Shown here one piece after another: positions 5,224 to 48,890 of a DNA stretch of 64,000 bases. How positions within the stretch are numbered: the stretch's first letter is position 1; the number at the start of each line of letters is the position of its first letter. The notes under the pieces are model-generated. The model saw nothing but the letters and a program-made list of their open reading frames with translations. It had not been told where the DNA came from and searched no databases. The translations under genes were made by a program, and so were the position numbers. The DNA is from Candidatus Poribacteria bacterium (GTDB lineage Bacteria; Poribacteria; WGA-4E; WGA-3G): contig OZ240248.1 in assembly GCA_965198235.1 (NCBI GenBank), positions 1,856,001 to 1,920,000 of the forward strand. The letters run 5' to 3'.

Positions 5224-5387
5224 GACTTTTTATCCGCTCATAATTCAGAGTCGGTTAGACTTAGCCGAAAACCGGGGTCCCCGCCCGTTACTGGGGAAGG
5301 GGTTTTTGATAGGGTATTTCTTCGGATTTCTTCGGATTTCTTCGATGAAACATAGTGGAACGATGTCCAGGTTTTAATAGTTAAAAA
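5183..5387. repeat. Composite repeat (family F1) carrying an A/C-rich modular insert on the minus strand
   Basis: Matches 48468-48510 and 48549-48610; inserted ggggtttttgatagggtatttc(ttcggatttc)2. Confidence 0.7.
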
Positions 5388-14368: not shown

Positions 14369-14417
14369 CGCTGGCGAGGTTTCCTGGGGGAAATCCGCAG
14401 AAATACCCCTCGCCTAC
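14369..14417. repeat. GTAG-type REP hairpin (family F4, ggcgaggtt..aacctcgcc) with modular insert in the loop
   Basis: Compare uninterrupted copies at 33987-34011 and 36013-36038. Confidence 0.7.
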
Positions 14418-23516: not shown

Positions 23517-23690
23517 GATGGGCAACAGATGCCTCAAGTGGCTATCGGCAGTCGGCTATCGGTTGTCAGTCACAAGAGGTGTTAGGACTATCAAGGGAAA
23601 TCCGCAGAAATCCGCAGGGAAATCCGCAAAAACACCCTCTTTTAGGCGCAAGCCTCTATGGGCTTGCGGGACAATGCTGACCGCCGATGG

Positions 23691-40130: not shown

Positions 40131-40507
40131 GTTGGGTTGAACGGGAACCTCCTAAAAATCGCACATAGAAAATGATTTTCGGGGGGCATCAAGAAACCTA
40201 AAATTACCGAAATACGAGTGAAACCCAACACATTCTCACGCCTACAGTGCCTGGATTGTTGGGTTTCGTTATATCTATCTACACCAATGGAACATCGAAA
40301 CGCGATATCCTCTGTATAAACGAGATGGACCTTTGTCTTTCATTGCTCAACCTGGGGGAAAAAGAAATACGCAGAAATACCCTATCAATACGCAGGGAAA
40401 TCCACAGAAATACCCTATCAAAAACCCCTATCAAAAACCCCAAGCAAAAACACCCCTATCAAAAACCCCTACGTCTACTTGAATTTTTATTATCGAACTC
40501 ACGTTAA
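40126..40507. mobile_element. Long REPIN/MITE-like element (GTAGGTTGGGTTGA...TCAACCCAACCTAC) with modular insert
   Basis: Colinear with 60312-60605 over about 270 bp; internal gaaacccaac/gttgggtttc inverted pair. Confidence 0.75.
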
Positions 40508-42573: not shown

Positions 42574-43390
42574 AACCCAAGTTGCTGCTAATAAATTTTG
42601 GACGTTCCAATAGGGTTCTTCAGGCACTCCCCACCCCGTAGGGGTGCTATGTCTATAGGAAACGGCGTATTCCAGCAACCGCACCCCGTAGGGGTGCCAT
42701 GTCTATAAATAGGTGACAACTTACGTTAGACATAGCGAATTCTAAGGGGAACACAAGAACTTATGGCGAACACCTATACTCAACTCTATGTACATATCGT
42801 GTTTTCTGTAAAAGGTAGACACGCACTTATTCCCGAATGTCACAAAGCAGAACTTCATAAATATATCACTGGCATCATCACTAATAAGAAACAGAAATTG
42901 ATTCAAATCAATTCGATGCCAGATCACATCCATATCTTGGTTAGTATGACTCCGGATACTGCCCTGTCTGGTTTGGTGAAAGATATTAAAGTAAATTCGA
43001 CGCGCTTTATCAATCAGAAACGCTGGACTGCGGGGCAATTTGCGTGGCAAGAGGGGTTTGGTGCGTTCAGTTATTCCTATTCTCAGATACCTGAGGTCGC
43101 TGCATATATTGAAAATCAGGAGACACATCATTCACGACGGTCATTTCGTGAGGAATATCTTGCGTTCTTGGAGCGTTTTGGGGTTGTGTATGATGTAAAG
43201 TACGTTTTTGATTCAGTTGCAGATCTCCCACCTGAAGAATGATTTATGGGCACAGCGTGGGTAAGCCACCTTTTTATTCACATAGCACCCCTACGGGGTG
43301 CGGGCCCCTGAGAAACGGTTTTTCTATAGACATAGCACCCCTACGGGGTGGAGAAAGTACCTAAAGAACCTTATTGAAGTGCCCAAAAAT
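42574..43390. mobile_element. IS200-type / REP-associated transposase locus with flanking hairpin repeats
   Basis: CACCCCGTAGGGGTG(C/G)..TGTCTATA twice on the left (42632, 42682) and twice inverted on the right (43281, 43325), plus about 40 bp of further imperfect inverted repeat. Confidence 0.8.
42763..43242 (+). CDS. tnpA: IS200/IS605-family Y1 HUH transposase
   Basis: YVHIVFSVK.R, DHIHIL (HUH), FAWQEGFGAFS, YIENQ..HH. Confidence 0.9.
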   Translation: MANTYTQLYVHIVFSVKGRHALIPECHKAELHKYITGIITNKKQKLIQINSMPDHIHILVSMTPDTALSGLVKDIKVNSTRFINQKRWTAGQFAWQEGFGAFSYSYSQIPEVAAYIENQETHHSRRSFREEYLAFLERFGVVYDVKYVFDSVADLPPEE

Positions 43391-48360: not shown

Positions 48361-48887
48361 TTTTTTAACTATGTGCTTCTGATCATCGTTCCAAATGTAA
48401 AGCATTCTCGCTGCGAAGCAAAATTATGCCATTTAAGGAAACCTAATTTCGTTCCACGATGGTTTTTGGTGAATTCCGATGCGACTGAAGATATGTACGA
48501 TTCTTAAGAGGGTAGGAGAACCTAAGACTGATCCCTACTACCCATTGTAATCCAGAGACGGTTAGACTTAGCCGAAAACCACCGTGGAACGATGCCCAGA
48601 TTTAATAGTTTATAGTAAAGCCCGAAAATATGTGCACATAGAGGATTTAGGGACCTCCCGCCTCGCTGGCGAGGTTTCCTTGGGGAAATCCGCAGAAATA
48701 CCCTATCAATACGCAGAAATACCCAAGCAAAAACACCCCTATCAAAAACACCTCGCCAACTCTAATGTGTATAGGTAATTATAGGCTTTACTATAATAAC
48801 CCAAGTTGCTACTAAAAAGTTTAGGGCATTTCAAGAAGAGGTTTAGACAATTTCCCCACCCCGTAGGGGTGCTATGTCTGTAGAAAA
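48361..48887. repeat. Nested composite of F1, F6, F4, modular insert and a solo tnpA-end repeat
   Basis: Each part matches copies elsewhere in the window. Confidence 0.75.
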
Positions 48888-48890
48888 CTG

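Follow-up and report, generated by a model that had tools for sequence, protein, structure and literature searches.

A modular, A/C-rich tract of 69 nt standing in the loop of a REP-like hairpin raises the question of how such a sequence came to lie there, and whether a dedicated enzyme is needed to place it. The tract belongs to a Candidatus Poribacteria genome (G000) of two contigs (5.12 Mb and 44 kb; 48% G+C; 96.3% complete); Poribacteria are sponge symbionts. The window analysed here is a stretch of 64,000 nt of this genome. The initial annotation had proposed that modular tracts enter unrelated REP hairpins at an equivalent, CCYAACC-like site, each of them following CCT, beginning with a G-run and replacing about two A residues, and that this results from a cut in hairpin DNA, possibly by the HUH transposase (TnpA) encoded at 42763, followed by de novo addition. 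The five sites quoted for this model (14373, 36013-36038, 40347, 48668 and 60557) all read as they had been written. The features concerned are listed in Table 1.

Table 1. Tracts, hairpins, repeats and the transposase gene considered in this analysis (positions of the window; the last five rows give positions on contig C1 of G000).
Feature	Position	Strand	Remarks
Tract, GAAGAAA-start type	5298..5345	-	
Second filled F4 hairpin, GGCGAGG-TTTCCT-[GGGGGAAATCCGCAGAAATACC]-CCTCGCC	14373..14414	+	22-nt tract
Tract mainly of alpha units (GGGAAATCCGCAG repeats)	23595..23637	+	flanks AAGAGG../..CCCTCTT
Empty F4 hairpin, stem GGCGAGGTT/AACCTCGCC	36014..36034	-	minus-strand loop TTTCCAA
116-nt tract in non-hairpin 'gctcaacc..cctacg' repeat family	40354..40469	+	filled 'tcaacct' site 40347
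REPtron: two CACCCCGTAGGGGTG hairpins upstream (42632, 42682) and two inverted downstream (43286, 43336) of RAYT	42632..43350	.	
Y1/HUH transposase gene, RAYT type ('42763 TnpA')	42763..43242	+	Y1_Tnp, Pfam 94 bits
Larger composite repeat around F4 hairpin and tract	48608..48804	+	
F4 REP-like hairpin, 5' arm (GGCGAGG) and kept loop residues (TTTCCT)	48668..48680	+	host of flagged tract
Modular A/C-rich tract, 69 nt: TGGGGAAATCCG / CAGAAATACCC / TATCAATACG / CAGAAATACCC / AAGCAAAAACACCCC / TATCAAAAAC	48681..48749	+	
F4 hairpin, 3' arm ACCTCGCC	48750..48757	+	
Empty paralogous site of gctcaacc family, tcaacccaacctacg	60557..60571	+	no fold
In-frame tract, 63-70 nt	C1:1098213-1098283		
In-frame tract, 63-70 nt	C1:4768743-4768807		
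In-frame tract, 63-70 nt	C1:2775701-2775764		
In-frame tract, 63-70 nt	C1:1415070-1415133		
In-frame tract, 63-70 nt	C1:5054470-5054534		

The flagged tract stands in place of the 'AA' of the empty loop TTTCCTAA, and the first bases (ACC) of the 3' arm that follows are those with which the last tract unit would canonically go on, which constitutes a microhomology at the 3' end. The composite repeat enclosing hairpin and tract has two more copies in the genome (C1:304878-305048 and 2786668-2786877), which are 82-83% alike and contain different tracts. The two filled F4 loci of the window are 98% alike across 42 nt. The empty F4 hairpin has a DNA fold of -10.3 kcal/mol (z -4.6); it is located within the plus-strand ORF 34283-37390, which encodes a Type ISP restriction-modification protein of 1035 aa, in the stretch separating the N6_Mtase (aa 285-545) and Type_ISP_C (aa 664-1008) domains, so that a REP-like palindrome is tolerated here in a coding linker. 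In the gctcaacc family, the flanks of the filled and the empty site (40154-40352 and 60365-60562) are 200-nt repeats with 75-79% likeness.

The spacer of the flagged tract (48406-48890; 485 nt, from a 337-aa ORF to smc) is built up of four or more different repeat modules, and its counterpart in congeners measures only about 3-270 nt. No usable orthologous empty site for the tracts at 14.4 kb and 48.6 kb was present in five congeners (about 89% coding identity), the spacers of which are wholly different. Some read-derived joints remake the empty loop, 48680 being joined to 48750 through a single A, but neither side exceeds 24 nt, and paralogues or other strains are a possible source of them. 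The contigs of RNA runs have a higher depth over 48.2-48.9 kb, which is confounded by copy number. The region 38515-39580 consists of 102-nt tandem repeats, 60-79% alike, and is probably a coding repeat array.

The wider set of tracts was collected by an iterated 10-mer scan seeded with the window's five tracts, with a cut-off of at least 20 nt, a procedure which divergent vocabularies would escape. In the window the tract words gave 6 and 5 matches, against 0.08 and 0.11 expected. In G000 the scan revealed 255 tracts amounting to 11,246 nt, with a median length of 26 and a maximum of 200 nt and a base composition of 47% A, 33% C, 13% G and 7% T; stop codons are absent from all forward frames in 250 of them. 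The tracts are polar and follow a common order; (i) the 5' side is opened by a G-run or GAAG; (ii) alpha units of about 10 nt come next (GAAATCCGCA type; GGGAAATCCG, CAGAAATCCG/TCCA/TACG), with A-runs phased at about 10 nt; (iii) a switch unit, CAGAAA[C/T]ACCC, ends the alpha series; (iv) beta units of 13-15 nt, [AAGC/TATC]AAAAAC(A)CCC, are placed after the switch unit, and any return to alpha units goes via ..CAATACG; (v) the 3' terminus is nearly always ..CAAAAAC(A). About half of the tracts are minimal cassettes of two units, (G/A)GGAAACACCC-AAGCAAAAAC(A)C, with a length of 22-25 nt. Nearly every long arrangement of units is unique. Among the 112 tracts of at least 30 nt, 102 have an anchorable start, which is formed by at least two G before AAA in 63, by GAAGAAA in 34 and otherwise in five; the G-run varies in length from 2 to 6. 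An opening G-run is therefore a property of the majority, but not of every tract as had been supposed. The tracts consist of head-to-tail units whose copy number differs between copies and alleles, as in a minisatellite (VNTR). The best reading of the tract at 48681-48749 is that of a member of a polar, A/C-rich, stop-codon-free family of modular minisatellite cassettes.

A tract-free paralogue exists for 141 of the 255 tracts. The junctions were defined on 62 clean filled/empty pairs forming 31 clusters; copies within one host family are non-independent events, and both gene calls and host clusters are crude. Across these 31 clusters, the passage from empty to filled replaces 2.6 nt on average (1-4 nt) with no target duplication. 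The host 3' flank, which is present in empty copies too, starts with (A)C[CT] in 93% of the clusters compared to 13% of random intergenic positions, and AAC[CT] is found at the empty site in 31% compared to 6%, a five-fold enrichment. These first host bases are the ones with which the last unit would continue (..CAAAAAC/ACC, /CCC or /AC, the slash marking the junction), giving a microhomology of 2-4 nt. The 5' end is composed of (T/TA/TTA) and a G-run, or of TGAAGAAA, mostly without homology to the host, and its neighbours vary (..cc/T, ..ac/TA, ..gca/T, ..att/, ..act/). For 45 of 241 tracts (19%, or 15% when weighted over 76 contexts) a CCT is found no more than 3 nt from the 5' purine run, against 4.6% of random intergenic sites, and for CT the figures are 50% against 16%. 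Unrelated hosts thus do share a site signature, but a looser one than the CCYAACC-like motif, and a preceding CCT, found at 15-19% of tracts only, is no general rule. Nor is the replacement of about two A a general rule, the mean being 2.6 nt and AAC[CT] marking the empty site in 31% of clusters.

The hosts of the tracts fall into at least 76 context clusters, as obtained by crude clustering. The hosts include the GGCGAGG, GGTGCGG and GGAGCGG hairpins, as well as CGCGAGCA..CTCGCTCC and GTAGGAG..CTCCGATTCC; RAYT-type REPs also serve, with the tract between the conserved tail and the hairpin foot. Further hosts are the non-hairpin gctcaacc family, a MITE bounded by terminal inverted repeats (TIR-MITE) and the Ff element, in which the tract is located in the 5' arm of a 16-bp stem. 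According to crude ORF calls, 209 of 253 tracts lie between genes, and tandem, convergent and divergent spacers carry them in background proportions; relative to genes, the orientation is the same for 63 and opposite for 84. Perfect flanking stems of at least 7 bp accompany 17% of the 255 tracts, compared to 6% for re-paired flanks and 2.6% for random positions. In predicted folds the tract forms the loop, and there are no hairpins inside it. The tcaacc family does not fold (z +0.17 and +0.87). Hairpins are enriched at the hosts, yet they are not required, as is evident from the non-folding tcaacc family, the stem-arm host and the tracts lying in frame in ORFs. The rule that tracts stand inside REP hairpins was accordingly not borne out, given the z scores of the tcaacc family and the share of 17% with flanking stems.

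Within the hairpin class of the flagged tract, 95 exact-stem GGCGAGG hairpins in G000 are empty and 27 are filled. The commonest empty loops are TTTCCTAA (13), TTACAAA (10), ATACAAT (10), TTTCAAA (8) and TTTCTAA (8), besides others. In all 27 filled hairpins it is the A-run side of the asymmetric loop that holds the tract, and the filled loops comprise five subtypes (TTTCC, TTTCT, ATAC, TTAC and TGTC), four of which match the 5' part of the listed empty loops. This placement, together with the loop subtypes, argues for repeated acquisition at an equivalent position. The Ff element has two symmetric arm sites, but every filled copy uses the same one (14 versus 0), as would be expected if a few acquisitions had been multiplied together with the host. 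On a tree of 26 Ff host elements, which has no starred branch, the filled state changes 8 times, compared to 8.8 times with shuffled labels.

Two further arrangements were observed. A tract is nested in inverted orientation inside a reverse-complement minimal tract at C1 minus 603006 and 2417689 and plus 2767826 and 2815159; all four cases belong to one host family and are bracketed by the inverted words GTTTTTGCTT / AAGCAAAAAC, which may have arisen by inversion or by strand switching. Another repeat (GGATTTGGTCTGGGAATAGACTAAATCC... plus CCTTGTATTACATT) lies inside tracts that are split after ..AAATACC, at C1:1052194 and 1557067 and, on the minus strand, at 3051175 and 1394037.

Several tracts are in frame in ORFs, all of them in the ORF orientation; among the proteins concerned are Maf, a HEAT/TPR protein and one of 2233 aa. 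Whichever of the three reading frames is used, the insert encoded is rich in Lys, Pro, Gln and Asn. Such loci can be compared between species, and a true orthologous empty site reads GCAACC. At C1:2775701 (L128) all six compared species have a tract, with 24-26 nt in four of them, 48 nt in one and 63 nt in G000. At C1:5054470 (L130) three species are empty (ACGCAACC, AGCAACCGA and TGCAGCC) and the others have 31, 55 and 64 nt. At C1:4768743 the states are GAAAC, GGAAGA and 27, 29 and 66 nt, and at the Maf locus relatives have an A/C-rich sequence of 10-20 nt, such as TTGAATACCC, compared to 70 nt in G000. This comparison indicates that the sites outlast speciation and that their length shifts by units. 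That cassettes change in length by whole units is thereby demonstrated.

The most informative arrangement is the variant ATCCGCAGAGGAAACRCCC (..ATCCGCAGAGGAAAC..), which is present at seven loci of G000, five in ORFs and two in F4-type hairpins. Only four copies exist in 60 congeners, and none was seen in alignable orthologous tracts. At least two of the seven loci have orthologues with shorter, different tracts. The alpha units (..TCCGCAG..) present in the long G000 versions are missing from the minimal orthologous tracts, so that in-place slippage cannot have made the long variant. Its occurrence at seven loci, including sites with older and shorter orthologous tracts, indicates that tracts have been copied between loci and older ones overwritten; this concerted evolution from locus to locus is thereby demonstrated. 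Across species, the canonical arrangement of about 70 nt sits in different hosts at all 18 loci fetched from 14 other genomes. Three copies of the TIR-MITE with identical flanks contain three different tracts, and two empty copies share those flanks; the change of tracts therefore outruns point substitution.

The distribution of the cassette was followed with the core module RAAAYRCCCWAKCAAAAAC, which has 235 copies in G000, the highest number among the 61 genomes of the genus searched. It was found in 59 of them, with 6-235 copies where present (median 65), and is absent from the other two; its reversed control gave no match in any genus genome. In other genera of the order, three of 73 genomes have the module, one copy apiece. 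The cassette family is genus-specific. Core modules are strongly imbalanced between forward and reverse strands in the closed congener G018 (44 and 118), unlike in G000 (106 and 129); the cumulative GC skew of G000 has no clean origin or terminus, and no regional pattern of tract strand was found.

As for candidate enzymes, G000 encodes six Y1_Tnp genes, three RAYTs and three IS200/IS605 TnpAs. The nearest solved relative of the 42763 protein is ISDra2 TnpA, and its homologues in Candidatus Poribacteria MAGs are 82-93% identical. The hairpins of its REPtron (CACCCC-GTA-GGGGTG) are of a class other than F4, and the repeats flanking each of the three RAYT genes (a variable stem plus CTATGTCTATAG) are neither F4 hairpins nor tracts but belong to a different class. 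A fifth copy of the CACCCCGTAGGGGTG hairpin lies at 48857-48871, beside the flagged tract. Since the longest recG ORF begins at 43298, within the downstream pair of the REPtron (43286-43350), the actual recG start probably lies further downstream. The genus-wide Y1 survey was confined to the RAYT clade. RAYT homologues (E <=1e-40) occur in 43 of the 61 genomes, and their number is unrelated to that of modules (Spearman rho -0.10; the 61 genomes are kin and so not independent). None of the tests made linked the 42763 RAYT to the tracts, and the cutting role proposed for it is not supported, since RAYT copy number is unrelated to tract load and the gene is flanked by its own, different REP class. 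Two near-identical IS200/IS605-type copies (C1:4381488 and 4792784) become alike from ..TTATCAAACC.. onwards, which resembles the tract unit TATCAAAAAC, probably by coincidence. Neither a reverse transcriptase domain (RVT_1, PF00078), for which the positive controls worked, nor the IS110 DEDD domain (PF01548) has any match in G000, at its completeness of 96.3%.

The explanation preferred here, which carries about half of our confidence, is microhomology-guided copying or gene conversion combined with unit slippage, acting on a genus-specific passenger cassette that resides in many unrelated repeats and a few ORFs. The copying would take place by replication- or repair-associated template switching (copy choice or short-homology gene conversion). 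Where a cassette is already resident, homology within the tract would be used, and at naive sites the microhomology of 2-4 nt that the C-rich end offers; slippage of units would come next, and a dedicated transposase or reverse transcriptase would not be needed. Hairpins and palindromes may favour the process through replication stalling and AAACC-type arm starts, without being required. What template switching explains less well is the 5' end, which is fairly uniform and mostly free of host microhomology, and the nearly invariable 3' terminus ..CAAAAAC(A), as ends so defined would equally suit an enzyme recognising the cassette. Moreover, comparison between strains captured neither an insertion nor a conversion event, the orthologous intergenic sites being too diverged and the read contigs short and ambiguous. 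Because the cassette ends are rather uniform, an HUH enzyme stays a minority possibility: an enzyme from among the three RAYTs and the three IS200/IS605 TnpAs would cut the loop borders in folded single-stranded DNA, leading to cut-and-paste or cassette exchange. The six genes are at hand, defined ends without target duplication are also those of IS200/IS605-type insertion, tracts occur in the RAYT's own REP class between conserved tail and hairpin foot, and CT is enriched near the 5' end (50% versus 16%). IS200/IS605 elements, however, have subterminal hairpins at both ends and insert 3' of a fixed 4-5-nt target without target duplication, whereas the cassette has no internal hairpins, variable 5' neighbours and no fixed tetranucleotide on the 5' side; the target bases are replaced rather than kept, and the hosts include non-hairpins, a stem arm and ORFs. 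The closed or near-closed genomes G036 (169 modules, one contig), G064 (135) and G042 (93) are rich in modules and have no RAYT homologue, whereas G048 has two RAYT homologues, 101 GGCGAGG hairpins and not a single module. With the lack of correlation given above, these genomes speak against the RAYT clade, the one surveyed across the genus, and an enzyme of this type is unlikely overall.

Equally unlikely, although compatible with the copying mechanism, is a selected functional module (for example an array of protein-binding sites or of bent DNA, or an A/C-rich RNA loop without structure) that would be retained in repeat loops for its usefulness and spread mainly by host repeats. The vocabulary conserved in 59 of 61 genomes, the 10-nt phasing of A-runs in alpha units and the coding site with a tract kept in six species speak for selection, but spacer type and gene orientation match the background, no Rfam family reaches the gathering score anywhere in the window, two congeners have no module, and tract length and order vary extremely even where the host copies are nearly identical. 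Growth in situ, by which each locus would have arisen through slippage from an AAACC or GAAAC seed and the shared vocabulary would be convergent, accounts for the frequent AAC[CT] or GAAAC at empty sites, for the stepwise length differences at orthologous loci and for variation that is mostly in tandem unit number. It fails to account for alpha units that occur neither in seeds nor in minimal orthologous tracts, for identical multi-unit arrangements at seven loci, including a variant almost confined to G000, and for one arrangement in different hosts across species; as an independent process it is already disfavoured and is considered quite improbable. Lowest of all stands the full model of the initial annotation, a hairpin cut followed by polymerase- or RT-made addition, which is very improbable and already largely refuted. 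The variable 5' G-run (2-6) and the polar structure would suit it, but the inserts are copies of a conserved, fixed vocabulary and of whole arrangements shared across loci and species, the genome lacks RVT_1, and G048 has hairpins and RAYTs in the absence of tracts.

A bolder form of the copying explanation, possible but rather doubtful, would regard the family as an enzyme-less mobile minisatellite. Purely microhomology-templated copying into (A)C[CT] sites and gene conversion among roughly 250 copies would then have colonised at least 76 contexts within one genus, and in-frame landings would write Lys/Pro/Gln/Asn-rich linkers into proteins such as Maf, the HEAT/TPR protein and the 2233-aa protein. 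If so, this would be a self-spreading sequence with its own repeat structure as sole 'machinery'. Should short arrays spread by copying alone, part of the bacterial 'mobile' repeat load would have no need of a transposase, the loops of REPs and MITEs would be nurseries for such sequences, and a route would exist for low-complexity linkers into proteins. In practice, the tracts are hypervariable markers that separate Poribacteria strains in sponge metagenomes, and a likely cause of assembly breaks.

Several known systems resemble the cassette in part. Rickettsia palindromic elements (RPEs) are palindromes of 100-150 bp inserted in frame in genes; IS1397 and ISKpn1 insert into REP loops, IS1397 being a complete IS that has its transposase. 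These systems and the tracts have in common that selfish repeats are tolerated in frame in ORFs and that hairpin loops serve as landing sites, but the tract is neither a 100-150-bp palindrome nor an IS with a transposase. Retrons, DGRs and telomerase-like systems, which make repeats by reverse transcription, and bridge-RNA-guided insertion into REPs of the IS110 type would each depend on a gene for which G000 gave no match, an RT and a DEDD transposase, respectively. The terminal inverted repeats and target-site duplication of a MITE are absent from the tract, which has only G-run and C-run ends and replaces host nucleotides, duplicating none. The SDR elements attributed to Elhai (2008) are reportedly 21-27 nt long, enzyme-less and dispersed in spacers of Nostocaceae, landing inside other repeats. 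As far as this description goes, the minimal cassette of 22-25 nt with its dozens of hosts would be similar; it differs in occurring in Poribacteria, in forming an array that can be extended by 10-15-nt units to as much as 200 nt and in having no hairpin of its own, and it adds gene conversion between loci and in-frame ORF copies. In the available portion of PMC5861425, insertion of SDR5 at HIP1 sites is given as a possibility, and SDRs were not found beyond the Nostocaceae.

The hosts, in turn, are of the REP/REPIN/BIME kind associated with RAYTs, as far as the available parts of the relevant papers describe it (Nunvar 2010, PMC2817692; Bertels & Rainey 2011, PMC3116915), with abundant palindromic hairpins, mosaic spacer clusters and a REPtron at 42632-43350. 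The tract, in contrast to the REPs and REPINs in those parts, is non-palindromic and is not cognate to the RAYT, and how abundant it is bears no relation to the presence of RAYTs. The F4 host is an imperfect palindrome (z -4.6), whereas the tract, with 47% A and 33% C, is not; neither F4 hairpins nor tracts are inverted around any of the three RAYTs, and repeat and RAYT do not co-occur, RAYTs being present in 43 and modules in 59 of the 61 genomes. The repeats treated in the available portion of PMC3909097 are protein repeats. No paper with any of four tract motifs, and no description of Poribacteria REP or tract repeats, emerged from the literature searched; supplements, which may contain repeat tables, were outside the search. 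The MITE minisatellite of Porphyromonas gingivalis is likewise a variable-number array within a small non-autonomous element, but, in the available part of its description (PMC4596501), one MITE family has its own array, whereas here one vocabulary is exchanged over at least 76 contexts. The cassette family thus differs from both SDRs and the MITE minisatellite in that a single extendable vocabulary occupies dozens of unrelated hosts, undergoes concerted evolution and has in-frame copies in genes.
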